From Candidatus Dojkabacteria bacterium (GTDB taxonomy: Bacteria > Patescibacteriota > Dojkabacteria > J137), in assembly GCA_025999215.1 (NCBI GenBank), contig AP024679.1, positions 633,924 to 697,923 on the forward strand: DNA of 64,000 nucleotides, in the 5' to 3' direction. A model generated the notes under the pieces. That model had not been told where the DNA came from and did no database searches. It saw only the letters and a list, made by a program, of their open reading frames with translations. Below are positions 11,685 through 61,825 of this stretch, one piece after another. Every line of letters begins with the position of its first letter. The stretch's first letter is position 1. Position numbers and translations under genes: made by a program.

Positions 11685-11743
11685 TTTAGTAATTTAAAAG
11701 TTAAGTTTTATTAACTCGGAATTTTAAGTATTAATATAATTTT

Positions 11744-15183: not shown

Positions 15184-15237
15184 TCATCAATATTATGATA
15201 ACAAGTATGCTGGGATCAATCAAATTAAAAATTCGGG

Positions 15238-15310: not shown

Positions 15311-15329
15311 AACAAAGACATTTCCTAAC

Positions 15330-17306: not shown

Positions 17307-17567
17307 ATGGAATTAGATTTTTATATAGGCTTTGTTGGCGCTATGGCGGTACTGGTGCCATTTGCGCTGATGAAGTTAAATGTTTGGAAAAGTAGTGATA
17401 TCTACTTTAATGTGTGTAATCTATTGGGATCAACTTTGTTGCTAGTATCAGCTTACTTAATTGATTCAATTCCTTTTGTACTTTTGAATTTGGTATGGCT
17501 TTTCTTCTCAGCAAGAGATGTAGCTAAATACTTTTTCAAGAAAATTTATCAGAGAAATGAAAAATAA
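17307..17567 (+). CDS. Small hypothetical membrane protein
   Basis: 86 aa with two predicted TM helices; it overlaps the umuD start. Confidence 0.4.
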   Translation: MELDFYIGFVGAMAVLVPFALMKLNVWKSSDIYFNVCNLLGSTLLLVSAYLIDSIPFVLLNLVWLFFSARDVAKYFFKKIYQRNEK

Positions 17568-17955: not shown

Positions 17956-19208
17956 TATTTTTAATTGATTGCAACAATTTTTATACAAGCTGTGAAGAAA
18001 TTTTTAATCCAAAACTCAAAAATTTTCCTTGCGTTGTACTATCAAGTAATGATGGGTGTGTAGTTGCGCGCTCTAGGCTTGCTAAGCAAATTGGTATTCC
18101 TATGGGCATTCCTGTTTTTAAAATTAGAAATCTTATAGAAAACTACAATGTGCAATTGTTTTCTGCAAACTTCAGTTTGTATGGTGATATTTCAAACCGA
18201 GTTATGCAAACTATTAAAACATTTGGTTTTGAAATTGAACAATATTCAATAGATGAAGCATTTGTTTATGTAGACGAGAAGCTAGATTTTCAAAAATTAG
18301 CTTTTGATATGCAAAAAAAAATCAAACAATGGTGCGGCATTCCTGTATCAATAGGTATAGCTCCCACAAAAACTCTTGCTAAATTAGCAAACTATCATGC
18401 CAAAAAATTTTCTGAAAAAAATATTTCTTACATTGATAATATCTATAGCCGCCAATGGTCTAACTTTTTTAAAAACTCGGCAATAACTGAAGTTTGGGGT
18501 ATAGGTTACAGAAACACTATTAGACTCAATAAAATTGGAATTTATACTTTGTTTGATTTCTTAAACGCAGATAGACTTGTAATTAAAAAAACTTTAGGAA
18601 TCAATGGCGTTAGAACTCAAATGGAATTGAAAGGAATTCCAACAATTTCAAAAGAAAGTTTTCAAACATCTAAATCTATTGTTACATCACGCTCTTTTGG
18701 AAAAAATATAACTAGTCTTAATGAGTTAAAAGAGACTGTATCTACTTTTGCCAACAATGTAAGTATCAAGTTACGCAAACAAAATGCTCTGGCAAGCTAC
18801 GTTTTTGTTGTAATTTATACCAACAAATTTAGTTCAAAATCCAAGCAATACTACGCCAAAGATTTCATTGCTCTTGATTCTCCCACAAACAGCAGTCAAA
18901 TTTTGATAGATAACGCAATAAAAATCTTAGAAAAAATATACAAAAAAGGTTATGAATACAAAAAGTCCATGGTTGGTGTATGGGGTATTTTTCCAAGTGG
19001 ATTTGAACCTAAAACATTATTCGATGATAAAAATAATTTGAAACTAAAAAATTTGGATGAAGCTATAGATAAAATAAATTTGAAAATCAAAAAAGACGGG
19101 ATAAAATATGCAGTTATGGGATTAGAATCAAAATGGATTCCTAAATCAAATATGAAAAGTTCAAAATATACTACTAATTGGAATGAAATATTGGAAATAA
19201 AGATTTGA
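17952..19208 (+). CDS. umuC: Y-family DNA polymerase UmuC (Pol V catalytic subunit)
   Basis: N-terminal FLIDCNNFYTSCEEIFNP, typical UmuC/DinB palm motifs, 418 aa. Confidence 0.85.
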   Translation: MIFLIDCNNFYTSCEEIFNPKLKNFPCVVLSSNDGCVVARSRLAKQIGIPMGIPVFKIRNLIENYNVQLFSANFSLYGDISNRVMQTIKTFGFEIEQYSIDEAFVYVDEKLDFQKLAFDMQKKIKQWCGIPVSIGIAPTKTLAKLANYHAKKFSEKNISYIDNIYSRQWSNFFKNSAITEVWGIGYRNTIRLNKIGIYTLFDFLNADRLVIKKTLGINGVRTQMELKGIPTISKESFQTSKSIVTSRSFGKNITSLNELKETVSTFANNVSIKLRKQNALASYVFVVIYTNKFSSKSKQYYAKDFIALDSPTNSSQILIDNAIKILEKIYKKGYEYKKSMVGVWGIFPSGFEPKTLFDDKNNLKLKNLDEAIDKINLKIKKDGIKYAVMGLESKWIPKSNMKSSKYTTNWNEILEIKI

Positions 19209-19656: not shown

Positions 19657-22352
19657 ATGGACAACTCTAGGTTCTAGAGAAAGTATTTCAAAGTTTAGTT
19701 TGTTTTTTGCAAACTCTTGGCGGTTTAGTTTGCTTACTATTACTCGCTATAGTTCCTTAGGATCACTCTCTTACACTACATTTTTACAAAGAGAAGGTTT
19801 TCCTGAAGTAGAAGTTCCTGTAGTTGTTATAAATGTACAAAACTTTACAAATGATTTAGAAAAAAATAATAAGGAATTAACAATACCTATAGAGCAAGCT
19901 TTGAAAGAAGTTTCAATAATGGAATCTTTCCAATCGACTACAACTCCAGTTGGTTCTTTTATAATAGCAAACGTTTCACCAGAGTTTTCTTCTGATGATG
20001 CTTTAAAAATAATAAAAGATGAAATTAGCGAACAAGTAACTTTGCCTGAAACTTCAAAAATCGATTATCAAACTTTTAGAGCTGGTTCAATTGATGGTAC
20101 TCATGATCTACTTTTCTCTATCACAAATGATTCAAAAAGCATTGTAGAAATGCAAAATGATGCACAAATTGTTGCAAGTGAGCTTGCAAGCCTAAATGAA
20201 GTGAGAGAGGCTAATGTGATAGAACAGATTACAAAAGAAGTAGATTCTTCCGGAAATGAATTTTTTTATCAATCACAGTTTCAGAGAGTTGGTTTAAAAA
20301 ACAGTGATGGAAGTATAGAGTTTAAAAATGCAGTAAATATTGGTGTAGTTAAAAGAAATCAAAATGTAGGAACTATAGAGCTATCTGAAGCTGTAAGAGG
20401 AAAAGTAAACGATTTAGTTGAAGACGGAGTTTTGAGCGGTTATGAGATCAATTACGGTGGAGATTTTGCTGAACCTTTAAAATCACAGATATCATCACTT
20501 GAACAAAATGCTTTAAGTGGACTTATTGCTGTAATTATAATCTCGTTTATTTTTATTAGTTGGCGATCGTCTTTAATTACTGGTTTGTTTATACCTGTAG
20601 TAATGGCAAGCACTTTTATGGCTTTGTTTGTGATGGGTTACAGCCTAAATATAATTTCACTTTTTGCATTAATATTGGTATTGGGATTACTAGTTGATGA
20701 TGTGATAATCGTTGTTGAAGCAATTGCCAAAAAACGTGAAGAAGGTTTGGAAAGGAAAGAAGCTATCAAAGAAGCAATAAAAGACATTGGACCTGCTGAT
20801 ATTTCCGGAACAATCACAACAATTTTGGTATTCATGCCTATGCTTTTTATCTCTGGTATTTTAGGCGATTTTATTGTATTAATTCCTGTTACAGTGATAA
20901 TGACTTTGATTTTCTCTTTATTAATAGCTTTATCGCTTTTCCCAATGTTGTCATCATGGGTTTTACCTAAAGGTGATGTTAGTCAAAAGAAATTTGGTAA
21001 GGTACTTAACTTTTCAAGTAGATTTATTAACAAGCTTGGAGTATATGTTTCAAAATATACCAATTGGTACTTGAATTCTAAAATTAAAACAACTGTGGTC
21101 GCAATTCTTGGAATAGTACTTGTGGGAGTTGGGATGAATTTTGCAGGAAGATTAGATTTCAATATTTTTCCTAAAGCTAAAGACTCAGATTCAATTTTCG
21201 TAAATATTACCTATTTACCTGGTACTGATATAGAAAAAGCTAAATCAATTGCTACCGATGTAGAAAATATAATTCTTAACAATTTAGATCAATCTAACAT
21301 TGAATACTTAACTTATTATATTGCTGATGATACTCAAGCTAACTCTAGCTGATACAACTTACTCCTATTGGCTCACGTGATGAAACTGCTATTGATATTG
21401 AAACCAAACTCAATGAGTAAATTAAGAGAATTTAGTGATGCTATTAGTTTCAGCAGAGTCATCTCAAGCGGGTCCTCCATCTTCAGAGTATCAATTTTTC
21501 GCTCAAATATATTCAAATGATTCACAGGTTCTGCAGAACCGCAAGTAGTGAATTAGTTGACATTTTTAGAAATCACAGAATATAAATGGCGTAACTGTTA
21601 CAGATACTTTTGTAACTGGTTTAGATCGATTAACCAAAAAGGATGGAAGAAGATTTGCTGAAGTTAAGGCAAAACTTAGTGATACTCTCGATACTGCTGT
21701 TGTCCTTGAACTTGAAAATAAAGTATTGGAAAATTTTAACGAACAAAAATTGCAGACATCTAGGTTTGATGAAAACTCTATAGAGTTTGATAAAGGACAA
21801 GAAAGTGAAAATTTAGAATCATTTAACTCAGCAATTTTTGCCTTTGGATTCTCTTTGATAATGATGTATGCGCTTTATTGGTGTTACAATTTAATTCCTT
21901 TTCTCAACCTTTGCTAGTTATGTTTGCTATACCATTGACATTTGCAGGTCTATTCCCAGGCTTATATTTTACTAATAATCCATTAAGCTTTTTTGTTATG
22001 ATTGGAGTTATTGGGCTTTCAGGTATTGTTGTTAATAACACTATAATGCTTGTTGACTTTGCTAATCAGTCAAGAGCGAAAGGTCAGAAATATAAAAGTA
22101 TCAATTACTAAAGCTATTCAAGAAAGATTTAGACCATTAGTAACAACATCCTTTACAACTGTGGTAGGACTAATTCCTTTAGCTCTAAACGATCCGTTCT
22201 GGGAGGGTTTGGCGTTTAGCATTGTTTTTGGACTAATTGCAAGCACCACTCTTGTTATCTTTGTTTTCCCGTCATATTATGTGATGGTAGAAAGAACACG
22301 AGAATTACGAAATAAATTGTTCGAAAAAATTAGTAACTTGGTTACAAATTAA
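19657..22352 (+). pseudogene. RND-family efflux transporter (AcrB/HAE-like) pseudogene, in at least four fragments
   Basis: Fragments at 19700-21352, 21726-21917, 21878-22111 and 22050-22352 each carry RND transmembrane motifs (LLVDDVIIVVEAI; PLTFAGLFPGLYF; PFWEGLAFSIVFGLIASTTL). Stops and frame changes occur in the N-terminal region and between 21353 and 22050. Confidence 0.7.
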
Positions 22353-22371
22353 AATTAAAGCATCAAAATAA

Positions 22372-23648
22372 ATGTTCAAATGCAAAAATTGTCAAAAGGA
22401 ATATTCTAAGTGGCAGGGAAAGTGTGATTCTTGTTTGGAATGGAATACTTTAGTTGAAGATTTTGATGAGTTCAACCAAAAATAGAAAAGACTTAAAAAA
22501 ACTAGAAATTGTTGATCTTGATAGCGTTAGTTCAAACTTCAAACAAAAGTTGGTTACTGAAATTTATGAGTTTGATCAAGCTCTGGGTGGGGGAATAACT
22601 CTTAGGTCAAGCAATTTTACTTGCAGGGTCACCAGGTATAGGAAAAAGTACACTTCTTTTATTAATTGCAAAACAATTAAAAACTAAGAAAGACATTTTA
22701 TATATTGCGGGTGAAGAATCGGTTGAGCAAATAAAAACAAGAGCTGTTCGGTTAGGTGAAGATTTTAAAAATCTTAAATTTATTCAAAACACTAACATAG
22801 AGAGTATTGAAAATTTTATAGTAAAGAACCATTCTTCGTTTTCACTAATTTTGGTTGATTCTATTCAAACGCTTTTTAGTCATGAAGTATCTTCGCCAGC
22901 GGGATCAATATCTCAGGTTACAACTTCAGCAGATAAATTAGTTCATCTTGCTAAAGGTTTCAATATTCCAATAATAATTGTTGGGCATATTACAAAAACA
23001 GGTAATATTGCTGGTCCAAAAACTCTTGAACACTTGGTAGATACAGTACTTTATTTTGAGGGTGATAAAAAACATGAGTTTAGAATACTACGAGTAGAGA
23101 AAAACCGTTTTGGTCCAACAGATTTGGTTGGTTTATTTAAAATGACGGAAAGTGGTTTAAAGGAAGTTAAAGACACAAAAGAGTTATTTCAACCTAAACA
23201 AGCACCAGCAATTGGTTCAGTTTTTACAGTTGCAATTGAAGGTAACAGACCTATAGTTTTAGAAGTGCAGGCTTTGTGCACAAAGTCATATTTTGAAATA
23301 CCACGAAGAACTACATCGGGATTTGAAAAAGCTAGACTAAATATTATTCTTGCACTTTTAGATAAAATTCTGAAATTAAAAACTTATGCATATGACGTTT
23401 ATGTAAATATAACTGGTGGATTAAACATCAAAGATCCAGGAATTGATTTAGCTGTTTTGAAAGCTATTATTTCAAGCATTAAAAATGAACCTGTTGATCC
23501 TAAAAATTTGTATTTTGGAGAAGTTGGTTTGACTGGCGAAATTCGTAAAGTAATGTTTCAAGAAAAAAGAACAAAAGAAGCCAAAAAATTAGGTTTTCAA
23601 AAAATTATTTGTTCAGATTACGTTCAGCAAATTAAAAATCTCGTTTGA
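22372..23648 (+). CDS. radA: DNA repair protein RadA/Sms, interrupted by two apparent 1-nt frameshifts (near 22470 and 22600)
   Basis: Zinc ribbon (CKNCQKEYSKWQGKCDSCLEWN), Walker A in a shifted frame (LLAGSPGIGKSTLLL), KNRFG motif and a Lon-like C-terminal domain. Removing one A from ctt-a-gg restores LGQAILLAG. Confidence 0.75.
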
Positions 23649-34418: not shown

Positions 34419-34433
34419 TTCTTACCTAAAGCT

Positions 34434-34506
34434 GGCCCCTTCGTCTAGCGGTCTAGGACATCGCTTTCTCAAGGCGGAAACACGGGTTCGAGTCCCGTAG
34501 GGGTCA
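34434..34506 (+). tRNA. tRNA-Glu (anticodon CTC), no encoded CCA
   Basis: Aligns with E. coli tRNA-Glu (GxCCCCTTCGTCTAG...GGTTCGAxTCCC...GGGGxC); anticodon loop TTCTCAA. Confidence 0.85.
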
Positions 34507-34507
34507 T

Positions 34508-34540
34508 AAAAAAGAAAAAAGCCTGGGTTGGATACCGGGC
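34508..34540 (-). terminator. Intrinsic terminator for ORF 34552-35088
   Basis: Minus-strand hairpin GCCCGG-TATCCAAC-CCAGGC followed by TTTTTTCTTTTTT. Confidence 0.6.
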
Positions 34541-34551
34541 TATGTCATGGC

Positions 34552-35088
34552 CTAGCCTTTGAGTTTGCGTTTAAACTCAACAATTGCAAGCATCGATAAT
34601 TGTTTTGCTACAGCGCGTAGATCTATTCTTTTTCCTGTTCCCTTCAGACACAACTCAAGACGAGTATTCGGAAACAGGTTGTTTGTCAGCGACAAGGTTG
34701 AGTAGAGCTGTACTACAGTGCTTAGGAGTACGATAAATCGAACCAAAACCTCCTTGAGCTCGTTAATTTTATCTGTAGAAAGCTCTGAAAGTTTAGCCGT
34801 AAAATCTTGCTCAATTTCTTTTATACTCTCATTGAGCTGTTCATAATTTAAATTTAACTCCACCCACCATTCAGGTGGTACCAGACTTATGCAATCTCGC
34901 AAACATCTCACAAACCACCCTAGTAGCGAAATAATTGACAACGAACTTCCTATGGCACTAGCGAGAGCTTCAACACTTAAATCTTCTTCATTATAATGAA
35001 AAAAGCTCATCATTTCCTCCTTTCGAGGATAAACATAGACACGATACATGATTTTATTATTTAAATTGTTCGTTGTCAACATTTTCAC
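34552..35088 (-). CDS. Hypothetical protein (178 aa), atypical codon usage
   Basis: Intact ORF with own terminator. Locally higher GC. No recognisable motif. Confidence 0.45.
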   Translation of the reverse strand: MKMLTTNNLNNKIMYRVYVYPRKEEMMSFFHYNEEDLSVEALASAIGSSLSIISLLGWFVRCLRDCISLVPPEWWVELNLNYEQLNESIKEIEQDFTAKLSELSTDKINELKEVLVRFIVLLSTVVQLYSTLSLTNNLFPNTRLELCLKGTGKRIDLRAVAKQLSMLAIVEFKRKLKG

Positions 35089-35422
35089 AAAAATTTTTTA
35101 AATATATCTAAAATTCAAATTAGAATAATTTTTAAATTAATATTCAACTATCAGCTTTAGTTTAAAGATTGGCAGCCTGGTGATGCATGTGATCATGACT
35201 TAATGGTATGGAAGAAATTTAAAGGTCATCAAAATGATAAAAAACAATTCTTAGCCTGAAGGTGAGTAATTTGTGATCAGCAACAACACAAAGTGACATC
35301 GAGCTCTTATTTTTAATTTTTTCCAATCTTATTATCAAATTTATAATCCGAATATTTATAATACTTTATCCTGTACATTTGCTAATTCGTAACATCTATG
35401 TTAATAGTTTTTGTTAAAACAG

Positions 35423-35452
35423 TTGACATAATGTTCAAACATTTGTTAAAAT
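35423..35452 (+). promoter_or_regulatory. Strong sigma70 promoter, TTGACA-17-TTAAAAT
   Basis: -35 at 35423-35428 and -10 at 35446-35452, about 25 nt upstream of the 35477 ATG. Confidence 0.55.
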
Positions 35453-35476
35453 AAGTAAATATTTAAGTAGTGTAGT

Positions 35477-36040
35477 ATGTATAATTTTGAAAAACATATA
35501 AGCAATAGAAAAACAATGACAGAATATTGGCTAGGAAATTTTAATACTGTTGAGGTATATATGAATCAGCAGGGTCAGTTTGCCAATGAAGGAGAAATAT
35601 TAGTGACTAACGGGTTAAATGGATGTGTAGCTCTCATTGTCAGAGCAGAAATGCCTGATGGAAAAGTAAAAGGTTTTCTTGCGCATAAACACTTGGATAA
35701 AAAAAGAATTCATGAATTTCTTAACGATCTAAAGAATGGTAATCTGTTATTAGATGCAAAGCTGTATGGGACAATTCTATATCCTGGAAATGAGCACGGC
35801 TTAATGCTTAGTCTTGAAGCCGAAACAATACAGGAAGAAATACAACAAAAACTAATTAATAATTTTGCTCCTGAAGCATGGTACCAATTGAGGTCTGTTA
35901 GGTATGCGATTTATCGTGGATTTCCAGGATCAGTTAATTCTAATCGGTTAGCCTATAATATTTCAGCAAATATGTGGGTATATCGTGAAGGTGCAGATCT
36001 CGAACATCCTTTAAGTGGCTTATTAAAACATGATAAATAA
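35477..36040 (+). CDS. Hypothetical protein (187 aa) with a conserved-looking Cys motif (TNGLNGCVALIV)
   Basis: Intact ORF behind a strong promoter. The motif suggests a Cys-dependent enzyme fold, but the family is unknown. Confidence 0.45.
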   Translation: MYNFEKHISNRKTMTEYWLGNFNTVEVYMNQQGQFANEGEILVTNGLNGCVALIVRAEMPDGKVKGFLAHKHLDKKRIHEFLNDLKNGNLLLDAKLYGTILYPGNEHGLMLSLEAETIQEEIQQKLINNFAPEAWYQLRSVRYAIYRGFPGSVNSNRLAYNISANMWVYREGADLEHPLSGLLKHDK

Positions 36041-36514
36041 ACAATTTTGACAGCAACCTAGATTTCTCCCACAAAATCGTTGAATGTTGGAATTCAACCT
36101 TACATGAGCTAACATTAGATTGTTACTCTTCAGCCATATCCACCATACTTTTTTAAAATTTTTTTGATAAACGCTCTCAATATTAATTTTTTGGTTTTAT
36201 TTTTCAAAACACTTCATAGTAAGCAAATAAAATTGCTAAAAAAGATGATCATATCATGCTTAATTACTTAAATATTTTTCACGACAATTATATAATGCAA
36301 AAAAAAGGAATAATTAAGGTAAATACTATCTAGCAAAACTTTCGTTCGTTAAGGAACTATATTTTGATATGGATTTATGCTAGTTCTTACATCTTAACCC
36401 CTAAAGTCTATTTCATCATACTATACCTAATCACTTATCAATTTTTTTGCAAAAATCATTGACTATGCTGTTACATCTGTGGTAAAGTTCAAGAAATAAA
36501 GTAAATGTTATATT

Positions 36515-37051
36515 ATGTTTATGTCTAACTTTGAAAATCTAGACTCTCAACGTACTCCTCCTGAAGATGGAATATATAGTGCTCGAGATTTGTGGATAAA
36601 ATTAAATGATGGTAATATTGCACAAGTTTTAAGTAAAAACTTATCTTTTGATTTAGAGCATGAGAACTGGAAAGTAAAATTTGAATATACCCCCCCAAAT
36701 GAAGACATTCAGGAAGACATTCAGTTTGCTCAGTTAAGTATAACAGATGAGCAAAAAAATACTGAGATTGAAATTCCAAAAGATATCATAGATAAAATAA
36801 TGAATCATTTAAATGAAAACAAAACTCAAGATCCCGGGCAGCTAGCTATTAATTTAAATACCTTGTTAAAAAAATATTTTGAAGATAAATCAAATCTTTT
36901 TTTCGTTACAATGTTCTTTTTGTATGTGATAGTTTTTGAAATGCAAGGAATGAAAGATATTCAAGATGAAAATGAAAAAAAACGAAGGGCTAAGTCTTTT
37001 GAAGTAGCAATGACTATGCTTAATTCTCCTGATATTCGTAATGAACAGTAA
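36515..37051 (+). CDS. Hypothetical protein (178 aa): acidic N-terminus, one hydrophobic segment, basic C-terminus
   Basis: ORF only. Candidate promoter TTGACT-17-TGgTAAAGT at about 36452-36485. Confidence 0.4.
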   Translation: MFMSNFENLDSQRTPPEDGIYSARDLWIKLNDGNIAQVLSKNLSFDLEHENWKVKFEYTPPNEDIQEDIQFAQLSITDEQKNTEIEIPKDIIDKIMNHLNENKTQDPGQLAINLNTLLKKYFEDKSNLFFVTMFFLYVIVFEMQGMKDIQDENEKKRRAKSFEVAMTMLNSPDIRNEQ

Positions 37052-37890
37052 ATTATTTTGTAATTTTAAAATAAATTGCTGATAGGTTATCGAATTTTCG
37101 GAACACTTTTTTTGATTCTTGAGATTTGAACTCATTTTGATGTGTATTTAAATCAGACTTAAAATTAGTGAAAAATTATTGTAACTTGTTAAGTTATTTT
37201 ATAGATAGTTCAAGCTTTAGGAAGATTTATGTAAAAATTTAACTATTTATGAAAGTCCCGAAGAGAGAATGGTAATACAACTGCCCGCCCTCGGATATTC
37301 TTACACAGAAGTTTTCATATTTGAGGGCTTTGAAAGACTGTACTAATGAAGGTAAAGTTCAATTGAGTGAATTGGTTGACACGTTATTTCATAATTTTAT
37401 TCCATTGTTTTGTTTTTTTATAATGATCATCATCATTATGAGAGTGATTCTTATAGAAATTCTTTTTTTGAATTTTAATAAATTTTATTACGCATTAATT
37501 TAAAGAGAAGATCCATCAATTGAAGAAAAAGATCGAGTAATTGAAGTGAATTTAACTTATTTTTTAGATATTTTAAGTAGAATTATTGGTGATGAATATA
37601 TTTCTACCCAAGCTAAATACTATTTTCTGATAAAAGGTTTACCTAGATATATTGATAAAATAAAAAGATCCTTACCGCCAAAGGATGAAAATACAAATTT
37701 AGCCTTAATTAAATACATTTAAACCCTCTAGCAATTTAAAAGTACACTCACAGACCTTAAATTTTAAATCATATTATACTTTTTGCATTTTTTAAAAGAT
37801 ATTCTTTATAAACAATCTTAAAAAAATATAAAATAAATCCTATAGTAATAAGAGTGAAAATTGTATTTATAATTAACTCAAAGCAATAGC

Positions 37891-37936
37891 TTAATTTCTT
37901 TAATTCTTTAATTCTTTAATTCTTTTATTCTTTCAT
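37891..37936. repeat. Short tandem repeat (AATTCTTT)n, about 5 units, 3 of them perfect
   Basis: ttaatttctt-taattctttaattctttaattcttttattctttcattcc, at the 3' end of ORF 37925-38695. Confidence 0.6.
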
Positions 37937-49674: not shown

Positions 49675-51590
49675 TTAAACTATTTCTCCTTCTTCGGCAT
49701 CTTTAGATTGATCATCTTTTCTATCGTTTGAATCTTTTTCTTTGCCACTATCTTTATCATTTGAGTCTTGATATTTATATATTTCTGAACCTACTCTCTG
49801 AATTGTTTCCTCAAGATTTGTTAATTTTGATTTCAAAGCATCCTTATCAACTTCAGTTTTGTTAAGTTCATCCTTGACTTCTTGAATTTTTGCTTCTAAA
49901 TCTTTTCTGTTTATTTCATCGATTTTATCAGCATAATCTTTGAGCATTTTTTCTGCTTGCCATACAGTTGTATCAGCTTCATTTCTGATTTTTAATCTTT
50001 CAAGTTCTTCTTTATCTCTTGCTTCATTTTCTGCTGCCTCTTTTACAAGTTTTTCTATTTCTTCTTCATCCAAGTGCGTTGATGCTGTAATGGTTACATC
50101 CTTTTCTTTTCCAGTTCCAAGATCCTTTGCTTTAACATTCAAAATTCCGTTTGCATCAATTTTAAAGGTAATCTCAAATCTTGGTACTCCACGAGGAGCA
50201 GGTGGAACTTCCAAATGAATCACTCCTAATTCTTTGTTATCTTTAGCAAGAGGTCTTTCACCCTGCAAAATCCTAACATCAATCGCTGGTTGATTATCTA
50301 CACCAGTCGTAAATCTATCTTCACTTTTTTCAACAGGAATTGTTGTGTTTCTTGGAATCAAAACATACATTTCCCCACCGTTAACCTCAATTCCCAAAGA
50401 TAACGGAGTAACATCTAACAAAGTTATATCTTCAACACTTGAATCTCCAGCTAATACAGCACCCTGTAATGCCGCTCCAACAGCAACTACTTCGTCAGGA
50501 TTTACACTTTGGTTAGGTTTTTTACCAAAAAATTCCTCAACTTTCTTAACAATCAAAGGCATTCTGGTCATTCCTCCAACCATTATCACCTCATCAATTT
50601 CACTTTTTGTTTTTCCTGCATCTTTGAGCGCATCTTCAACTGGTTTCAATGTTTTTTCAACTAGGTGCATTACAAGTTTCTCATACTCAGATCGAGTTAG
50701 GCTCATCTTGAAATGCTTTGGACCTTTAGAATCTGCAGTGATATACGGGAGATTAATTTCAGTCTTTTCGCTACTTGATAAAGTAATTTTTGCTTTTTCT
50801 GCTGCTTCCTTTAATCTTTGTAACGCAGCAGGGTCTTCTTTTAAATCAATGCCATGCTCTTTCTTGAATACGTCAACCATGTGGTCAATCAACACTTGAT
50901 CAAAATCATCTCCTCCAAGATGCGTATCTCCGTTTGTTGATAAAACTTCATAAACTCCATCACCTATTTCTAAAATTGTAATATCAAATGTTCCACCACC
51001 AAGGTCATAAACTGCAATCGTTTGTTCTTTATCTTTTTTATCTAAACCATAAGCAATCGCAGCAGCTGTAGGTTCATTGATTATTCTTCTTACATTGAGG
51101 CCTGCTATTTTACCGGCATTTTTAGTTGCTTGTCTTTGAGCATCATCAAAATATGCAGGAACAGTTATTACTGCATCAGTCACGCTCTCACCCAAATAAG
51201 CTTCTGCATCGGCTTTAATTTTTGCCAGCACTCTCGCAGAAATTACCTCAGGAGCAACCCACTTATCACCAAATTGGATCTCTACTCCACCCTTGGAGCT
51301 TTTTCGGACTTTAAAAGGAAAGTTACTAATATCTTTTTGCACTTCTGGATCGTCAAACTTTCCTTCCAATTAATCTTTTTACAGAATAAAAAGTTTGCTC
51401 AGGGTTCGTAACCATTTGGTTTTTCGCGGTAATTCCAACAATCTCACTCTTTGTATCAACATCAATTGCAACAACAGAAGGTGTAGTCCTAAAACCTTCT
51501 TTGTTTGTGATAACTTCAGGCTTACCTCCTTGTACAAAGGCAACCGCTGAGTTTGTAGTTCCCAAGATCTATTCCAACTATTTTTCCCAT
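49675..51590 (-). CDS. dnaK: Chaperone DnaK (Hsp70), with an apparent +1-nt frameshift near 51362
   Basis: N-terminal [17 protein letters not shown] (true start about 51590), then [13 protein letters not shown] and DLGGGTFD motifs. Deleting one G in gga-agg-aaa-G-tt-tga restores [12 protein letters not shown]. Confidence 0.85.
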
Positions 51591-51703
51591 AAATTAAAAT
51601 CTAACAAATAATCTGTATTAGCACTTAAAGTATAAGACTGCTAATTTAAATTGTCAAGAGTTTCCTGATAATTTTTTGTTGTTCTTAAAAATTGAAATGA
51701 AAA

Positions 51704-52265
51704 TTACTTACCAACAATAACCCTCGCCGGCCTTATTACACCATCTTTTCCTTTGTATTTGTAAGCTGAAGATATTACTGCTATGACCTTATTCTTAAAA
51801 TTTTCATCGGGTATTACAGAAATTGCCTCCATAATTTCTTTATCAAATTCATCGCCTTTTTTAATTTCTATTTTTTCTACTCCCGCAAGATTAATCGATT
51901 GGTTAAGCTTTTCTTTTGCAGTTTTCAAAGCTTCTTTGGCACCTTCCAAATTTAAATCTTCATCATTTAAAGCCAAATCTATGTCGTCACTTACTTCCAG
52001 TATCTCTTGAATTAGTGACAAATTTGTTAGTGCTCCAAACGTTGCTTTCTCCTTTTCAATCCTTTTTTTGTAATTATCAAAGTCGGCCATCACTTGTAAT
52101 TTTTTGTTTTTTTCAAGCTCTAATTCTTGTTGTAATTTTGCTATTTCTTTTTCAAGTTTGGTGATTTTTGCGTTTTGATCACTTGCACTTTGTTTATTGA
52201 GCTCTGTTTGCTAGCCTGTGATTGATTGCCCTTTTTTGACTTTTTTTATCGTTTTTCTGTGTCAT
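51704..52265 (-). CDS. grpE: Nucleotide exchange factor GrpE, with a probable frameshift in the 5' region (T-runs at about 52232-52247)
   Basis: Core ...ITKLEKEIAKLQQELELEKNKKLQVMADFDNYKKRIEKEK and a C-terminal beta domain. An upstream ATG at 52265 is in a different frame. Confidence 0.7.
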
Positions 52266-52287
52266 AGCTTTGTTCTATAAAAAATAA

Positions 52288-53017
52288 TTACCAACCTCTC
52301 ATCAAATGAGTTATTGTTTCTGCTATATATTTTACTGCTGGTATTACAATTTCATAATTCATCCTGTTCGGGCCTACAACCGCAATGTAGGCTTTTTTAT
52401 CCTCAAAAATTTTTAAAGTTGTGAAAATTATTGTGTAATCGCTTAAATGATCTTCTCCCGTCTCTTCGCCGATCAAAATTGCGACATCATCATTTTCATA
52501 GTTATTAAAAATTTTAGATAATGCTGAATAATCTTCGATCAAGTAAAGCAATCCCTGCAGCCGTCCAACATCCTGAAATTCAGGAAGATTAACCATTTTA
52601 GCCAAACCAACATGAAAAATATTGTTACCTACCAAAGCAATTGCTGTATTTTGCTGTCATGTGGTGCAAATAATCAAGGCTTCGCATTATCAACTTCTCA
52701 GTTTCAAATTTCAAAATATTTAACTGGTATTTAATTTCTTGTTCAGTATCTTTTATAACATTGATTGGATTCTTTGGTTTTACTTTGTGGATGTAAAACC
52801 TCCATGCCTTCGTTGTGGGTATTCTGCCTCCACTCGAGTGCTTCATGTAGAGATAACCTTTTTTTACCAACTCCGCCATTTCATTTCTGATCGTTGCTGG
52901 ACTCACATTCAACTTGAGTTTTTCTTGCAGACTCAGCGACCCAACCGCGCTTCCGGTATCTATAAATTCTCTAATTATTGCAATCAGCAATTCTTGTTGT
53001 CTTTCTGTGATGTCCAT
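52288..53017 (-). CDS. hrcA: Heat-inducible transcription repressor HrcA, with an apparent frameshift near 52630-52665
   Basis: N-terminal wHTH (MDITERQQELLIAIIREFIDTGSAVGS...ATIRNEMAEL) and C-terminal motif IAVVGPNRMNYEIVIPAVKYIAE lie in different frames. Confidence 0.75.
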
Positions 53018-53049
53018 AGTCCTAAGTATTCTAAACTTCAATATTAATT

Positions 53050-53068
53050 TTAGCACAATTTAGCACTC
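53050..53068 (-). promoter_or_regulatory. CIRCE-like half-site (GAGTGCTAA plus a TGCTAA repeat) in the hrcA leader
   Basis: Minus strand reads GAGTGCTAAattgTGCTAA, about 35 nt upstream of the hrcA ATG. The canonical partner TTAGCACTC nine nt away is absent. Confidence 0.4.
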
Positions 53069-53160
53069 TTTTAAACAGACTGATATTTTATTGCATTTGA
53101 TTGACAGTTTAAATTAGGCCTAATTGCTCTGGGTGTATGCTCTTAGGTTTCTTGGGGCGT

Positions 53161-55569
53161 TTAGATTTGCGAGGCTCGATTTTCATTTTTTGACTGTTTT
53201 TCAAAATCATTGAGTATCTCGTTTGCTCTCCTGATTACTTCTTCAGGTACTCCTGCCAGTTTTGCGACATGTACACCATAACTTTTGTTGGTTGCGCCTT
53301 CGACTATTTTATGTTTAAAAAATATGTTTTGATCTCTCTCTTCTACGTCAACGGAAAAATTTTTTATATTCGAAAAATTATTTTCTAAAGCAGTTACCTC
53401 GTGATAATGTGTTGCAAATAAAGTTTTACAAAAAATTTTTTGAGCTATAAATTCTAAAATTGACCATGCTATGGCTACTCCGTCGTAAGTGCTTGTTCCT
53501 CTGCCAACTTCGTCCAAAATGATTAAACTTTGTGACGTAGCGTTATTTAAAATATTGGCTGTTTCGTTCATTTCAACCATGAAAGTGGACTCTCCTCTTG
53601 CCAAATTATCTGATGCTCCCACTCGTGTAAAAATTCTATCAACTACTTCAAACTCCATTTTATCAGCTGGCACGAATGAACCTATTTGGGCAAGCAAAAA
53701 GTTTAGCGCCACCTGCCTTATATATGTTGATTTTCCTGACATGTTTGGTCCAGTTATTATGTGAATTAAATTATCACTTTTAAATTTCGTAGAGTTTGGA
53801 GTAAAAGTTTTGGATATTGCCTCAACTACTGGGTGCCGTGCATTTACAATTTCGCAATATCCTTGAACTATATTGGGTTTAGTATATTTCCTTTCTCTAG
53901 CAATTTTTGCAAAAGCTACCCAGATATCAACATTAGCTACAAAATTTGCTATGGTCAAAAAGTATTCTAAATATTTTGATATTTCATCTAAAATTTCAAA
54001 AAACAACTCTTTTTCACGCTCAATTAGCTCTGTCTCAGCATTTAAAAGTTTTTCTTCGATTTCTTTTAGTTCTTGTGTTATGAATCGTTCAGCATTTGCA
54101 AGTGTTTGTTTTCGAATATAATTGTCTGGAACTTTTTGTAAATTAGACTTGGTAACTTCAATGTAATAACCAAAAACTCTATTAAATGAAATTTTCAACG
54201 AAGATATTCCTGTAGATTCGATTTCTTTTTGTTGCATTTCTCTTATTATTTTTTGGGCATTTTGTCTCAAATTTCTAAATTCATCAACCTTGGCATCAAA
54301 GCCATCATTTATTATTCTACCTTCATTTATATTAACTGCAGGGTCATTAATTATAGCTTTGTCCAAATATTCTATTATGTTTTTAATTTGTTCATAATTT
54401 GAACTATCAACAAAATAGTTTTTAATATCCTGCAAAAGTTTTGGCAAATTTTTGTTTTCTAAATGGTCAAAAAAATCAAAAGTTGCAATTAAACTTTCTT
54501 TTAAAGCTACCAAATCTTTAGGGTTAGCCGAACGTACTCCAAGCCTTGCTGTTATTCTTTCTATGTCTGAAATTTCTTTAAGCTTAATTTCTAAATCTTC
54601 CAAAATATCCTTGTTGTTATAAAAAAATTCCACAGCATCAAGCCTTTGTTGGATTTTATTTTTATCATTGAGGGGCTGAATAATCCAATTACGAAGCATT
54701 CTCTTTCCCATTGGTGTTTTACATTTATTAATCACATCATAAAGAGAAATACCATCATTATTTAAAGGAAAAATAAGCTCTAGGTTTCTAATGGTTTCAG
54801 AATCTAAATTCATCACTCCGTCATAGTCATAAACATTAACCTTTCTTAAATGTCTAATACCATTTAAATGACATTCTGCCAAATACCTTAAAACAGCGCC
54901 CAAAACAATTACAGCTCCTTTATCTTGATCTAAACCAAACCCTTTGAGCGAGTTAATTTCAAAGTGTGATTTGATAAAATCAGTAGCCCTTTCAAGATTG
55001 AAAAAATCATCTGGAAGTATCTCTATGTTTTTAAGATCTTTCAATTTATTTACTTCACTTTTTTTAACCAAAATTTCTGAAGGGTTGTACTTTAAAACTT
55101 CTGAAAATAATTGATTGATTGTATTAGCTTTAAAAATATTTATGAGCCCTGTATGAGGATCAGTAAAACCAAAAATTTTTTCATCAATTAGTACACATCC
55201 TAAATAGTTATTTTTAAAATGTGGAAGATCATTTCCATCGTCAATTACTGTTCCTGGAGTGATAACTTTAGTAACTTTTCTCTCAACCAACTTGCCTGGG
55301 ACCGCCTCCTCTGTTTGATCAGCAATAGCTACTTTCAAACCTTCTTCAATTAATTTAGGCAAATAATTTTTCAATGCATGGTGAGGAATACCTGCCATTG
55401 GTCTTTTGGATTCACCTTTTCCTCTTGATGTTAATGTGATACCCAAAACTTGAGAAATCTTTTTTGCATCTTCATCAAAAGCTTCGTAAAAATCACCCAG
55501 TCTAAAAAGCAGTATAAAATTTGGATAGCGAGATTTAATTTCATTGTATTGTTGTTGCATAGGTGTCAT
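53161..55569 (-). CDS. mutS: DNA mismatch repair protein MutS
   Basis: N-terminal MTPMQQQYNEIKSRYPNFILLFRLGDFYE, Walker A ITGPNMSGKSTY; 802 aa, intact. Confidence 0.95.
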   Translation of the reverse strand: MTPMQQQYNEIKSRYPNFILLFRLGDFYEAFDEDAKKISQVLGITLTSRGKGESKRPMAGIPHHALKNYLPKLIEEGLKVAIADQTEEAVPGKLVERKVTKVITPGTVIDDGNDLPHFKNNYLGCVLIDEKIFGFTDPHTGLINIFKANTINQLFSEVLKYNPSEILVKKSEVNKLKDLKNIEILPDDFFNLERATDFIKSHFEINSLKGFGLDQDKGAVIVLGAVLRYLAECHLNGIRHLRKVNVYDYDGVMNLDSETIRNLELIFPLNNDGISLYDVINKCKTPMGKRMLRNWIIQPLNDKNKIQQRLDAVEFFYNNKDILEDLEIKLKEISDIERITARLGVRSANPKDLVALKESLIATFDFFDHLENKNLPKLLQDIKNYFVDSSNYEQIKNIIEYLDKAIINDPAVNINEGRIINDGFDAKVDEFRNLRQNAQKIIREMQQKEIESTGISSLKISFNRVFGYYIEVTKSNLQKVPDNYIRKQTLANAERFITQELKEIEEKLLNAETELIEREKELFFEILDEISKYLEYFLTIANFVANVDIWVAFAKIARERKYTKPNIVQGYCEIVNARHPVVEAISKTFTPNSTKFKSDNLIHIITGPNMSGKSTYIRQVALNFLLAQIGSFVPADKMEFEVVDRIFTRVGASDNLARGESTFMVEMNETANILNNATSQSLIILDEVGRGTSTYDGVAIAWSILEFIAQKIFCKTLFATHYHEVTALENNFSNIKNFSVDVEERDQNIFFKHKIVEGATNKSYGVHVAKLAGVPEEVIRRANEILNDFEKQSKNENRASQI

Positions 55570-55584
55570 ATCCGAATTTTAACA

Positions 55585-57822
55585 TTAACTTAATTTAATT
55601 TCTTTTCTTTTTCTGTTTACATAAATTACAACACCTACCAAACCAACAAAACCTAGCGGAGATATTACACTGTAGGCAATTAGCGATTGCTTTTCTTGAT
55701 TAGTTAATTCAAGTGGTAATGGAGTTCTATTTTTTGCGCTAATTTGAGATAGTGAACTTGTATCATCAAGTAACCACTCAATACTTGATAATGCAAAATT
55801 TAAATTTGTTTGAGTTAAGAAATCATCATCCAAAAATAAAGAATCACCAACCACGATCGATTTGCCGGAATTATTATCTAAAGCAACAGCCAAATTTAAA
55901 CTTTTATCACTTTCACTAGGTTTAAATTCTTGATTTGTAGAAATATTTAAATTATCTTCTGTTTGAAAATTTGACGAAGCGCTTGTTGTCAAAAGCACAA
56001 TAACTCTAACGCCTTCAATATCCTCTACATCAATAGAGCTTCCCCACAAAATTGATACATTACCTAAATCTTTTAAAATTTCTTTGGCATCTTGAGTTGT
56101 ATTAGCTCTTACCCAAAATGGATAATCTACAATAACTGGCAACAGCCCACTTGATAAATTTATTTGATTATTATTTTCTAGATCATAAACTAAATTATCT
56201 TGCACTACTACACCGTAAGGCTCAAAAAGATCTTTTAAACTAAATTCATTAGGTATAGGCACAAATGTTTGCTCTGGAACTTCTATGGTATCAACAAGTA
56301 ATAGAATTCTTCCACCATTTTCAAAATAACTTCTTAAATTTTCTAAAACTCCCTGTTCAAACGCTTGATTAGGTGAAGTCAAAACTACCAAATTGTATTC
56401 ACTCAAATTAGTATCTCGATTTAATTCAATATCGCTTACATCATAAATTTCACTCAAACTTTGATTTAAAATTCTATAATTTACAACTCTAGTTCGAGCT
56501 ACATTGTTTTTAACAAATGCAACTTTTAATTTATTGGTATCAGTCAAACTCTTAATTTTTTTCGTTATCTCAAACTCAAGATTTGAACTAACATCTTCTG
56601 TCAATTCCAAAGATTCTGTTAAACCTTGATACTCAAAACCTAACCCTAAATACCCTATAGTTCTATTAGCTGAGTTTTCAGAATTTACTGAAAATAATAT
56701 CTCTCTTAACCCTATACTTTGAGCTTTTTCTTTTGCATTTTCATCTCTATCAGTATAAAGAATTTCAGTTTCAATGTTTCCCGAAGAAAACGATTCATAA
56801 TCATCTAGAATATCTTTAACACTTTGCAAGTCTTTTTGGAATTGAATTGGCAAGTTAGATGAAGTGTACAAAGTAATTTTAAGTTTTTCGTTTTCAATAT
56901 TTTGGATAATATTTTTAGTTACTTCTGAAAGTGTGTAAATTTTATTTTCAGTTAAATCAGCTCTACCAGAAATTTCTTGACCGTAAAAAGATACTAAACC
57001 AAATATACTTATAAAAAAGAAAATTGATACTTGCCCCAAAACTCTTGTTGTAAAATTTTTGGGATATCTTTCTGTAATTAAACCAAAGGTGGAAACACTC
57101 AATGCTAAAATTATTAAACTCAAAAAATAAATTAAATCTCTCAAATCAAGCACTCCTCTTGAAAGCGAAGTGTAATGAGAGTAAATTCCAAAAACTCTTA
57201 AGAAAGAGTCAAATTCAAAAGGTAATACTCTTAAAAAATCCGAACCTATTACAACCATCAAACCGCAAATAGTAAGAGATAACAAAAAAGCAGGGATCTC
57301 ATTTTTAAAATAAGTTGAAACCGCAATGCCAATTGATGCAATTGCTGACCCAACCAAGAACACACCAAAAATTTGCATTGACACCTGACCTAAATCTAAT
57401 TTTTCTATCGAATTTATAAATAAAATTGACGGAAGTAGCAGTATACTCAACACCCCAACTATAAAACTAGCACTCAACCATTTTGCTAATACAAAAGTAA
57501 ATATTGAAAAAGGTTTATTTAAAACAAATTCAATTGTTCCCAACTGTTTTTCTTTTGAAATTGCTCCCATTGTTAATGCAGGAACGATAAATACAAAACT
57601 AAACAGTGATGCGGTAAATAATGGTGAAATGTTTGTTGTACCAAACTCTACAAACCTAAAAATTCCAAAAAATATCAAAAAAACAATAAAAATATAAAGC
57701 CCTGAGATTACAAAAAAAATTGGAGTAAAGAAAAAATACTGCAATTCTTTTTTAATCAAAAACAAAAAAATGATAAAGTTTTTCAAATTGATATTTTTTA
57801 ATTTAGGTATTTTTGTTTTCAT
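55585..57822 (-). CDS. ABC-2 type permease fused to a GldG-like auxiliary domain (GldF/GldG-like)
   Basis: N-terminal 6-TM ABC-2 permease region, a large extracytoplasmic domain, and a C-terminal TM anchor. Confidence 0.6.
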   Translation of the reverse strand: MKTKIPKLKNINLKNFIIFLFLIKKELQYFFFTPIFFVISGLYIFIVFLIFFGIFRFVEFGTTNISPLFTASLFSFVFIVPALTMGAISKEKQLGTIEFVLNKPFSIFTFVLAKWLSASFIVGVLSILLLPSILFINSIEKLDLGQVSMQIFGVFLVGSAIASIGIAVSTYFKNEIPAFLLSLTICGLMVVIGSDFLRVLPFEFDSFLRVFGIYSHYTSLSRGVLDLRDLIYFLSLIILALSVSTFGLITERYPKNFTTRVLGQVSIFFFISIFGLVSFYGQEISGRADLTENKIYTLSEVTKNIIQNIENEKLKITLYTSSNLPIQFQKDLQSVKDILDDYESFSSGNIETEILYTDRDENAKEKAQSIGLREILFSVNSENSANRTIGYLGLGFEYQGLTESLELTEDVSSNLEFEITKKIKSLTDTNKLKVAFVKNNVARTRVVNYRILNQSLSEIYDVSDIELNRDTNLSEYNLVVLTSPNQAFEQGVLENLRSYFENGGRILLLVDTIEVPEQTFVPIPNEFSLKDLFEPYGVVVQDNLVYDLENNNQINLSSGLLPVIVDYPFWVRANTTQDAKEILKDLGNVSILWGSSIDVEDIEGVRVIVLLTTSASSNFQTEDNLNISTNQEFKPSESDKSLNLAVALDNNSGKSIVVGDSLFLDDDFLTQTNLNFALSSIEWLLDDTSSLSQISAKNRTPLPLELTNQEKQSLIAYSVISPLGFVGLVGVVIYVNRKRKEIKLS

Positions 57823-58561
57823 AAGCTTTTAAAACTATTTCACAAAATAATTTTTCTAATGTGATATTTTTTTGATTAATTGTAGTCTTAATTGATTTGA
57901 TTGATTTATCAACCAATAGTTTGCCTTTTGCAATGATAAGAACGCGAGAACACATTGCTTCCACTTCTTGCATTACATGAGTACTTATCAAAACTGTTCG
58001 TTTTTTTCCTATTTCTTTTATCACATTCCTAATCTCTATTCGCTGTATTGGATCGAGTCCTTCAGTTGGTTCATCAAGCAATAAAAGCTCTGGATCAACC
58101 ACCAACACTTGCGCAAGCCCTACTCTTTGCTTGTAACCTTTTGAAAGCGTAGCTACACTTTTATTAAGATAATTCTGTAATCCTGTTGATTCAATTGCAT
58201 ATTCAAGCGCTTCTTTTCTCTTACGTCCCCAAACTCCATGCAAATTTAGAGAATTGTTGAGAGATTCAATTACAGTTAAATGAGGATACAGGGGATTATT
58301 CTCTGGCATATAACCTATTTTTTTTTGAACGCTTAAAATATCTTTATATGTTGAATATCCACAAACTCTGACCTCACCTGTATCAGGAATAAGAAAACCT
58401 GAGATTAATTTCATCAAAGTACTTTTTCCTGCGCCATTAGGTCCCAACAAAGCCACAACTTCTCCTGCTTTCACTGTAAAACTTATATCATCCAAAGCTC
58501 TAACCTTGCCGTAATTTTTTGTAACATTTTTAACTTCTAAAACTAATCCCATACTCTGCAT
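57803..58561 (-). CDS. ABC transporter ATP-binding protein
   Basis: Walker A LLGPNGAGKSTL, signature LSKGYKQRV, Walker B LLLLDEP. Confidence 0.9.
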   Translation of the reverse strand: MQSMGLVLEVKNVTKNYGKVRALDDISFTVKAGEVVALLGPNGAGKSTLMKLISGFLIPDTGEVRVCGYSTYKDILSVQKKIGYMPENNPLYPHLTVIESLNNSLNLHGVWGRKRKEALEYAIESTGLQNYLNKSVATLSKGYKQRVGLAQVLVVDPELLLLDEPTEGLDPIQRIEIRNVIKEIGKKRTVLISTHVMQEVEAMCSRVLIIAKGKLLVDKSIKSIKTTINQKNITLEKLFCEIVLKAYENKNT

Positions 58562-58614
58562 TTTGCTTTATACAATAAAATTTGTCAAGTATTAGAATTT
58601 TTACTTTAAAAATA

Positions 58615-58643
58615 TTGAATCAATATTAATCTTTTGATAAAAT
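58615..58643 (+). promoter_or_regulatory. Promoter for the proS T-box leader, TTGAAT-17-TAAAAT
   Basis: -35 at 58615-58620 and -10 at 58638-58643. Confidence 0.45.
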
Positions 58644-58649
58644 TTGAAA

Positions 58650-58870
58650 AGAGTAAATTGTTACACACGATGAAGAGGCTTCCTACCTCGGAGTGTTTGG
58701 GGATCCTTAATGCTAACCCAATCAAGTTTGTCACTTGAGTAACGAGAAACGACAAGGTTGTGTGTAGTAATACATTTCAACCACTGAGTGAAAAATGAAG
58801 GTGGTACCGTGGCTTAAAAGTCACCCTTCTAGGTTTTTATTGCAAGAACTTAGACGGGTGACTTTTTTTA
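58650..58870 (+). promoter_or_regulatory. T-box riboswitch leader upstream of proS
   Basis: Conserved T-box sequence AATGAAGGTGGTACCGTGG (58794-58812). Terminator stem AGTCACCC/GGGTGACT plus T7 at 58819-58869. Stem I region contains a CCU specifier candidate in ggcttCCTacc. Confidence 0.65.
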
Positions 58871-58895
58871 TTATTAATTTTTAAAATTTAAATAA

Positions 58896-60634
58896 ATGAC
58901 ATATTCAAAAATTTTTACAAAAACAAACCAAACGCAAAAAAACTTTGATTCCAAAAATGCAACATTTCTTCAAAAAGCGGGATACATTCACCAAACAATG
59001 GCCGGAGTGTACACAATGTTACCCTCTAGGAAAGAGAGTTATCCGAAAAATTGAAAACATTGTTCGAGAAGAAATGGATAAAATTGCAGATGAAATAATA
59101 ATGCCAGCAATAGTTCCAAGAGAACTTTGGGAAAAAACTAATAGAGTGGATTCAAATGATTCACTTTTATCTGCTGTTCCTGCAAACGATCAATCAAAGA
59201 AAAACAATGAAGCTGACTATATACTTTCACCTACTCACGAGGAAGTCGTAACCCCCCTAGTGCAAGAATTTGTAAAAAGCTACAAAGATTTACCCGTTGC
59301 TGTGTATCAGATTCAAGTGAAATTTAGAAATGAAGCAAGACCTAAATCAGGTTTAATGAGATTAAGAGAATTCATAATGAAAGATTTGTACAGTTTTCAC
59401 AAAGATAAAGACTGATTTAATGAATTATTATGAAAAATCTAAAGAAGCTTACAAAAGAGTTTTTGATAGACTCGGAATTGGCGATGTTACAGTAATTGCT
59501 CTTGCTTCAGGTGGTGATTTTACTGATAATTTTTCTCACGAATTTCAAACATTTTGTGAGATTGGAGAAGATACACTTTTTTACGATGAAACAACAAACA
59601 CTTATTACAACAGAGAAGTAACACCTTCTAAAGCACCAACCAAAGAAACAAATGAAGAAATGCTACCTCGCGAAGATGTTTTTGGCGAGGGAATCGTAAG
59701 CGTTGAAAAACTAGTTGAATTTTTAAATATTCCAATTGAAAAAACAGTAAAAACTCTTCTTTACAAAGACGAATTAAATCAAATTTATGCTGTTGCTGTG
59801 AGGGGAGACTACGAAGTGAGCGAAGAAAAGCTTAAAAAAGTTTTGAATGTAAAATCTATTGAATTGCTATCTGAACAAGAAATTTTTGAGAAAACAGGAG
59901 CCCAAGTTGGGTATGCAGGAATACTTGATTTACCTAGCGATATAAAGATTATCTGTGACGAAGCGCTTGAGAGTATGATAAATTTTGAAGTTGGCGCGAA
60001 CAAAACTAACTACCATACCATAAATGCAAATTGGGGACGAGACATTCAAAAACCTGAACAATTTTATGACATAAAAGTTACCAAAGAAGGAGATCTTAAT
60101 CCAAAAACTGGTAAACCTTACAAATACTTCAAAGCGGCAGAGGTTGGAAACATTTTCCCGCTAGAAATTAAGTTTTCAAAAGCTTTTGATTTTAATGTAA
60201 CCAATGAAAAGGGTGAACAAGAAATAGTTTATATGGGTTGTTACGGCATAGGTGTAACTAGATTAATGGGAGTAATTGCAGAAGTAAAAAGTGATTATAA
60301 AGGCTTAGTTTGGCCAATTCAAATAGCTCCTTACCATGTTCATTTACTAAACATCGGCAACAAAGAAACTGAAGCATTCAGAAAAGCTGAAAGTTTATAC
60401 AATTCATTGATTGAACAAAATGTAGAAGTTTTGTGGGATGATAGAGATGAGGCTCCAGGTAAAAAACTTAACGATGCTGATTTAATTGGTATCCCGATTC
60501 GGGTAGTGGTCAGTGAAAAATCACTAAGCAATGGAGGTTATGAAGTTAAATTGAGAAATAAAAATGAAGTGATGTTACTTGATGAAACAAAATTAATTGA
60601 ATTTATCAAAAAACAAATTAATTATATTGTGTGA
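58896..60634 (+). CDS. proS: Proline--tRNA ligase, with two apparent 1-nt frameshifts (near 59033 and 59413)
   Basis: Three frames carry consecutive ProRS segments: MTYSKIF...FLQKAGYIHQTMAGVYTMLP, then LGKRVIRKIENIVREEM...LSPTHEEVVT...MRLREFIMKDLYSFHKDKD, then DLMNYYEKSKEAYKRVFDRLG... and a C-terminal anticodon-binding domain. Confidence 0.8.
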
Positions 60635-61485: not shown

Positions 61486-61575
61486 GGAGAGGTGGCCGAG
61501 CGGTCTAAGGCACATGTCTCGAAAACATGAAGGGCAAAAAAGCCCTCGTGGGTTCGAATCCCACCCTCTCCGCCA
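61486..61575 (+). tRNA. tRNA-Ser (anticodon CGA), CCA encoded
   Basis: GGAGAGGTGGCCGAGCGGTCTAAGGC... with anticodon loop CTCGAAA, a long variable arm, T-loop GGTTCGAATCC and 3' GCCA. Confidence 0.9.
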
Positions 61576-61825
61576 ATTGGTATTCTGGGGGGAATTTAAA
61601 AGGGCACGCCAGCTGAGTTTCCCTTCAAATATTTTTACTTTGCTTGAAAAGTAAGAGAGCAAAAGCGGGTTTTTTCTCATCTTTGGCTTAAAAATTTGCT
61701 TGCCTTGAGTATTACTTAGTATAATGTTGACACATGTAAATATAAAAAATTGTAGTTTGCTATAACTAAAAATACTCACCCACAGGGGTGTTGAACGTTT
61801 CACTTGAGGAGTTAATAAAATAATT

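Follow-up and report, generated by a model that had tools for sequence, protein, structure and literature searches.

Genes of the window and their interrupted reading frames

The window analyzed here is a stretch of 64,000 nucleotides (nt) from the Candidatus Dojkabacteria genome KatS3mg085 (contig AP024679.1, positions 633,924 to 697,923), in which seven genes, encoding an AcrB-like transporter of the RND (resistance-nodulation-division) family, RadA, DnaK, GrpE, HrcA, MutS, and ProS, are interrupted by one-base insertions and deletions (indels). Positions given below are those of the window. The guanine-plus-cytosine (GC) content of the window is approximately 31%, and long intact open reading frames (ORFs) alternate with series of short ORFs that lie on the same strand and change frame. 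Comparison with NCBIfam and Pfam profiles identified the short ORFs as successive pieces of single genes, with contiguous profile coordinates in differing frames.

A metagenome assembly from the Joint Genome Institute (JGI) was found to be syntenic with the window across most of its length, and orthologous proteins of this relative were used as the reference. Thirty-five of them were aligned with the window DNA by frameshift-aware dynamic programming, and the junctions were then checked by nucleotide. The compared sequence amounted to 42,885 positions in 35 genes, comprising the seven affected genes and 28 further ones. A total of 16 one-base events were required, 13 insertions and three deletions (binomial p = 0.02 for the excess of insertions); seven of these fell in the AcrB-like gene, two each in radA, dnaK, and proS, and one each in grpE, hrcA, and mutS. 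Neither nonsense codons nor larger, multi-base deletions were present in the seven affected genes. The remaining 28 genes, including uvrA, mfd, tyrS, dnaE, xfp, and the pentose-phosphate genes, needed no events. When single bases were removed or added at these sites, the DnaK, ProS, and RadA proteins exceeded their NCBIfam equivalog cut-offs, and the lengths of ProS, HrcA, and MutS became exactly those of their orthologs. Identity between the affected proteins and their orthologs was 65-89% at aligned residues, the values for dnaK and proS being 88-89%.

All seven affected genes occupy a single frame in the relatives. Intact syntenic orthologs are present in the assemblies of three JGI samples, and the AcrB-like gene of 889 amino acids (aa) is intact in two JGI assemblies. 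The original prediction, which was made from the letters of the window, had named seven frameshifts in hrcA, grpE, dnaK, proS, and radA, and every one of these was confirmed; those in hrcA, dnaK, proS, and radA were placed by the frameshift-aware alignment, and that in grpE was bounded by flanking stops. Its list of genes was correct as far as it went but lacked the AcrB-like gene with its seven shifts. Among the six long ORFs that it had regarded as intact, uvrA, mfd, dnaE, and xfp were free of events, whereas mutS carries an insertion near its 3' end.

The AcrB-like gene (19670-22352, forward strand) lies directly upstream of radA and is broken into at least four pieces, with parts of the Pfam ACR_tran domain in different frames. 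Deletions were placed at about 21342-21350, at 21569, and at 21874, and insertions at 21415, 21443, 21534, and 22088; the corrected protein matched ACR_tran with 315 bits. Just upstream of this gene, at 17524-19208, is a conserved pair of genes encoding a LexA-like S24 peptidase and a Y-family (ImpB/MucB/SamB) polymerase, both intact here and in the relative. The radA gene (22372-23648, forward strand) has +1 insertions at about 22459 and 22598 and is spread over three frames. The corrected RadA has 424 aa, compared with 425 aa in the relative, and scored 477.6 bits against TIGR00416 (cut-off 403).

On the reverse strand, dnaK (49675-51590) has +1 insertions at about 51361 and within 51553-51566, the second just past codon 8, and its fragments match profile positions 9-76 and then 77-617 of 625. 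The corrected DnaK of 637 aa scored 880 bits against NF001413 (cut-off 648) at profile positions 1-617 of 625, and along its entire length it shared 87% identity with the 648-aa DnaK of the relative. The shift at 51361 had been attributed to an extra G; the shift itself is confirmed, but an additional A or T in the adjacent AAA and TTT runs would account for it equally well. In grpE (51704-52265, reverse strand), the ATG at 52265 and the conserved body of the gene are in different frames, and the ORF from stop to stop covers positions 29-190 of 191 of the GrpE profile and has no start codon before 52093. A +1 insertion within 52194-52211, an interval bounded by the flanking stops in both frames, accounts for this, the exact base being inferred; the corrected GrpE has 186 aa and that of the relative 174 aa. 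The hrcA gene (52288-53017, reverse strand), which encodes a short form of 242 aa, has a +1 insertion at about 52649-52654, and its fragments match profile positions 1-118 and 229-337 of 338. By tblastn, residues 1-121 and 122-241 of the relative's protein aligned in neighboring frames, and a single surplus base remained at 52654. The corrected HrcA has 242 aa, as in the relative, and covers both ends of the model with 188.8 bits, just below the cut-off of 197.2. The hrcA-grpE-dnaK operon is thus affected, as had been predicted, with four shifts rather than three, the additional one being the second shift in dnaK.

The insertion in mutS (53109-55569, reverse strand) lies at about 53169 and removes the last 17 or so residues, the conserved C-terminal tail ...KRPKKPKSIHPEQLGLI continuing in another frame to 53109. 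The corrected MutS and that of the relative both have 819 aa. The detached tail (53109-53170) ends in ...HPEQLGLI, where the relative has ...HPEQLGLM, and presumably resembles the beta-clamp-binding motif of other MutS C-termini. The proS gene (58896-60634, forward strand) has +1 insertions in a CCC run at 59022-59024, which had previously been placed at about 59033, and at 59413, outside any run. Its fragments match profile positions 1-47, 43-167, and 163-558 of 559, and the corrected ProS of 578 aa, equal in length to that of the relative, scored 578.8 bits against NF006625 (cut-off 558) over positions 1-558 of 559.

An alternative genetic code, in which UGA or UAG is read as sense (codes 4 and 25), would make such ORFs continuous if the breaks were in-frame stops, and some lineages of the candidate phyla radiation do recode UGA. 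Stop-codon reassignment was excluded, in agreement with the original prediction, because homology resumes in a different frame after every break; in addition, code 11 yields intact long ORFs in other parts of the window.

Distribution of the indels

All 16 indels lie inside three patches that total 3,447 nt, or 8% of the compared sequence, while the remaining 39,438 nt hold none. Patch A (21342-22598) contains nine one-base indels in 1.26 kb; it covers the AcrB-like gene in its 3' third and extends over the first 230 nt of radA. Patch B (51361-53169) contains five one-base insertions in 1.8 kb and reaches from the first 230 nt of dnaK across grpE and hrcA into mutS, of which it includes the last 60 nt. 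Patch C (59022-59413), in the 5' third of proS, consists of two +1 insertions 391 nt apart. The rate within patches is approximately one indel per 215 nt, corresponding roughly to a quality of Q23. In 200,000 random placements of 16 events over the 42,885 positions, the largest nearest-neighbor distance never came down to the observed 515 nt (p < 5e-6), and the probability of seven or fewer genes being hit was 0.0008; the clustering that had been noticed from the sequence is therefore far beyond chance.

The borders of the patches cut through genes. Both dnaK events are in the first 230 nt of the gene and the next 1.69 kb is clean, and mutS is affected solely in its last 60 nt, the other 2.4 kb being clean. 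The AcrB-like gene is affected only in its last 1 kb, after 1.67 kb of clean sequence, and the same patch continues into the start of radA, of which the last 1.05 kb is again clean. The indels follow physical position, and not gene, operon, or function. Because the indels occur by stretches, ignore gene borders, and are exclusively of one base, and because the proteins are otherwise conserved, a sequencing or consensus process is indicated and not decay driven by selection.

Real and very recent pseudogenization would imply a decaying lineage that is losing the heat-shock operon, proS, radA, and the transporter. The indels are present in a deposited sequence with the status 'finished', and a nearby island at 11.3-15.3 kb has lesions of possibly real decay (a TAG within a MazG-like domain and a truncated methylase). 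Genes that remain recognizable while broken by frameshifts are also typical of real pseudogene accumulation, as in Mycobacterium leprae and recent insect symbionts; there, however, lesions are mixed and spread over whole genes, deletions are favored, and essential single-copy genes are spared, none of which holds here. Bacterial genome decay is biased toward deletions, whereas insertions exceed deletions by 13 to 3 in the window, and the affected genes lack nonsense codons and multi-base deletions. The lesions track position and end in the middle of genes, the proteins retain the identity to their orthologs given above, and about 16 recent and mutually independent events, all within 3.4 kb, would be needed, including a double event in proS, whose loss is expected to be lethal since it charges the tRNA for proline. 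No second copy of dnaK or proS was found in the window, and no further DnaK of the same contig was found among the best 120 matches, the examination covering the window and the top database matches. Pseudogenization is accordingly judged highly improbable. The proposal that the heat-shock operon and proS have been inactivated was not upheld, in that an unrelated transporter, radA, and the end of mutS are affected as well and most of dnaK and mutS is clean; an indel density as high as that in the operon, the finding that the original prediction had named as contrary evidence, was encountered elsewhere within the window in the AcrB-radA patch.

Local sequence does not explain the clustering, because the patches are neither repeated elsewhere in the window nor richer in homopolymers than the window average. 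The best fix lay within a 3-nt run at four of the seven resolvable sites, a proportion of little power since such runs are common at 31% GC. At the level of single sites, several fixes tie, and the local test was blocked by nearby alignment gaps at eight of the 15 aligned sites. Some indels are compatible with the extension of a 2-nt run to three, and some sites are beside short A or T runs. There was no sign of extra substitutions within the patches; the N-terminus of DnaK, for example, is 98.6% identical to that of the relative.

The adjacency of some sites to A or T runs could also suggest that the proteins are made whole by programmed ribosomal frameshifting or by slippage during transcription. 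A one-base discontinuity inside a functional gene is indeed what is seen in the programmed +1 and -1 frameshifts of prfB and dnaX and in the poly(A) slippage of endosymbionts, but those cases rely on conserved motifs or long runs that are kept among relatives. Here, the 16 sites would demand both +1 and -1 corrections, they share no common context motif, at least one of them is outside runs, and the genes of the relatives are in a single frame. The runs measure merely 2-4 nt, which is too short for efficient slippage. This explanation was considered extremely improbable.

Origin of the indels

The genome KatS3mg085 (AP024679) was obtained from the metagenome of Katase hot-spring sediment (Kato et al. 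2022, PMC9671151). The sequencing platform, a point raised in the original prediction, was established from that publication: the reads were PacBio Sequel II high-fidelity (HiFi) circular consensus sequences alone, filtered at >Q20, and were assembled with metaFlye 2.8.3, with no further polishing described, and annotated with DFAST (PMC9671151). Table S3 of the same publication lists KatS3mg085 as a member of Dojkabacteria order J137 with one circular contig of 862,240 bp, 852 coding sequences, 31.4% GC, a coverage of 10.8x, the status 'Finished', and the accession number AP024679. The provenance is therefore error-prone, with long reads only, low coverage, and no orthogonal polishing described.

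In a published benchmark of HiFi metagenome assemblers, metaFlye and metaMDBG gave the largest numbers of indels without any supporting read, with thousands of genes affected, and they were found sometimes to follow single-read variants or to output sequence lacking read support (Trigodet et al. 2025, bioRxiv 10.1101/2025.04.22.649783). That study resembles the present case in the assembler family, the read type, and the breakage of ORFs by one-base indels in good contigs, even circular 'complete' ones. It differs in the metaFlye version (2.9.5) and the datasets, and the tight patchiness described here, with stretches of 0.4-1.8 kb at about Q23 in a clean background, is an observation of the present analysis that was made on the assembled sequence. 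A second point of comparison is provided by the frameshift-split genes of noisy long-read assemblies, which protein-length tests such as IDEEL detect; there, indels make proteins shorter than their best homologs and polishing cures the defect. Frameshift errors of that kind are usually genome-wide and linked to homopolymers, whereas those of the window are confined to a few short stretches and are not linked to long homopolymers.

The frameshifts are best explained as local consensus errors of the deposited assembly (probability approximately 0.9), and not as pseudogenization, recoding, or programmed frameshifting. Three lines of evidence favor consensus error: the indels occur in patches, single-base correction cleanly restores the genes, and the provenance of the assembly is documented (HiFi reads only, metaFlye 2.8.3, 10.8x). 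At about Q23, the patches have the quality of the worst single reads that passed the filter, whose threshold of Q20 is slightly lower. Within the patches, thin local coverage may have led the contig to follow a single low-quality read or a draft segment left unpolished; alternatively, the polisher itself may have introduced the indels. Gene callers would then cut each affected gene into fragments, and these would enter public protein databases. The first of the two explanations in the original prediction was localized assembly or homopolymer errors; localized assembly or consensus errors are strongly supported, and the attribution to homopolymers weakly, as the proS insertion at 59413 is outside a run and the patches are not enriched in homopolymers.

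Several points weigh against consensus error. At a mean coverage of 10.8x, a Poisson distribution makes stretches with at most one read rare (own rough calculation), so that uneven coverage, strain-filtered recruitment of reads, or polisher errors would be needed. Homopolymers are commonly described as the places where HiFi errors accumulate, and at least one site (59413) is outside any homopolymer run. That the reads disagree with the indels is inferred. A second assembly of the same species was not found in the protein database, in which the nearest other DnaK was 87% identical. A scan of contigs with the MutS of the window gave no match closer than distant relatives with identities of 50% and 41%.

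The indels could also be real but belong to molecules that do not represent the consensus, the contig having followed single reads of minority or damaged DNA, for example after error-prone repair had produced localized mutation showers. The patches, with many changes in 0.4-1.8 kb each, are similar in size to repair tracts, cases are published in which long-read assemblers took a single-read variant, and the sample was taken in June 2012 and stored at -80°C until DNA extraction (PMC9671151). The LexA-like S24 peptidase and Y-family polymerase genes lie at 17.5-19.2 kb. The absence of added substitutions in the patches argues against this explanation, as does the nature of the changes: pure 1-nt indels point to sequencing chemistry and not to translesion polymerases. 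Non-consensus molecules were judged quite unlikely as the source, and if they were, the functional genome of the organism would remain intact. It is very unlikely that the patches are real, either as indel showers made by repair in a Dojkabacteria subpopulation or as the mark of a collapsing lineage in which dnaK, grpE, hrcA, proS, and radA are freshly inactivated.

Consequences for the use of the genome

The dnaK, grpE, hrcA, mutS, proS, and radA genes and the gene of the RND-family transporter are very probably intact in the organism itself; biologically the indels are a non-event, and their importance lies in data quality. A genome labeled 'finished' and circular holds stretches of about Q23 that break essential genes, and the resulting fragments are found in the NCBI non-redundant protein database, where two entries 100% identical to sequence of the window are a 564-aa 'chaperone protein DnaK' without its N-terminus and the C-terminal part of RadA, entered as the 265-aa 'hypothetical protein KatS3mg085_638'. 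Inferences from AP024679 about lost genes, a reduced chaperone capacity, or the pseudogene load of this lineage of the candidate phyla radiation would be misleading. Clean sequence broken by short indel-dense stretches that cross gene borders can serve as a diagnostic for low-coverage assemblies made from HiFi reads with metaFlye.

Other features of the window

A region of 2.36 kb between uvrA and tyrS (6444-8803) is free of ORFs, with a stop density at the random level in all six frames. It had no Rfam match at a permissive threshold and contained no notable repeats, and nothing similar was found in the relative, in which the gap between tyrS and uvrA is approximately 300 nt. The region may be a lineage-specific non-coding insertion or possibly an artifact of the 'non-existent sequence' type produced by metaFlye.

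An element of approximately 190 nt is located directly downstream of both tRNA-Ser genes (GGA and CGA), within 15140-15419 and 61486-61754, and the two copies share 79% identity. A third copy, together with a fragment of about 25 nt from the 3' end of a tRNA-Ser gene, is found at 11084-11296, and its 73-nt core is 98.6% identical to 15238-15310. The copies at 11.1-11.3 and 15.1-15.3 kb, the latter beside tRNA-Ser(GGA), form direct repeats around an island of about 4 kb with a higher GC content (11.3-15.3 kb). Within this island, at 11314-13947, a MazG-like gene has an in-frame TAG at 11518-11520 inside its Pfam domain and probably also a -1 shift near 11610 in a run of A, and a gene with HSDR_N_2 and N6_Mtase domains ends at position 45 of 311 of the methylase profile. 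These lesions may represent real decay of an integrated element, and they were left out of the error patches because they are different in kind and may be real. A candidate fourth error patch at 10.9-11.1 kb, in a small helix-turn-helix gene, was not counted, as the version corrected by hand had no Pfam support.

A block of 3.4 kb beside tRNA-Glu (34433-37915) contains small hypothetical ORFs without Pfam matches. It is missing in the relative, in which the DUF4013 gene comes immediately after the Na+/H+ antiporter gene, and is probably a small genomic island.

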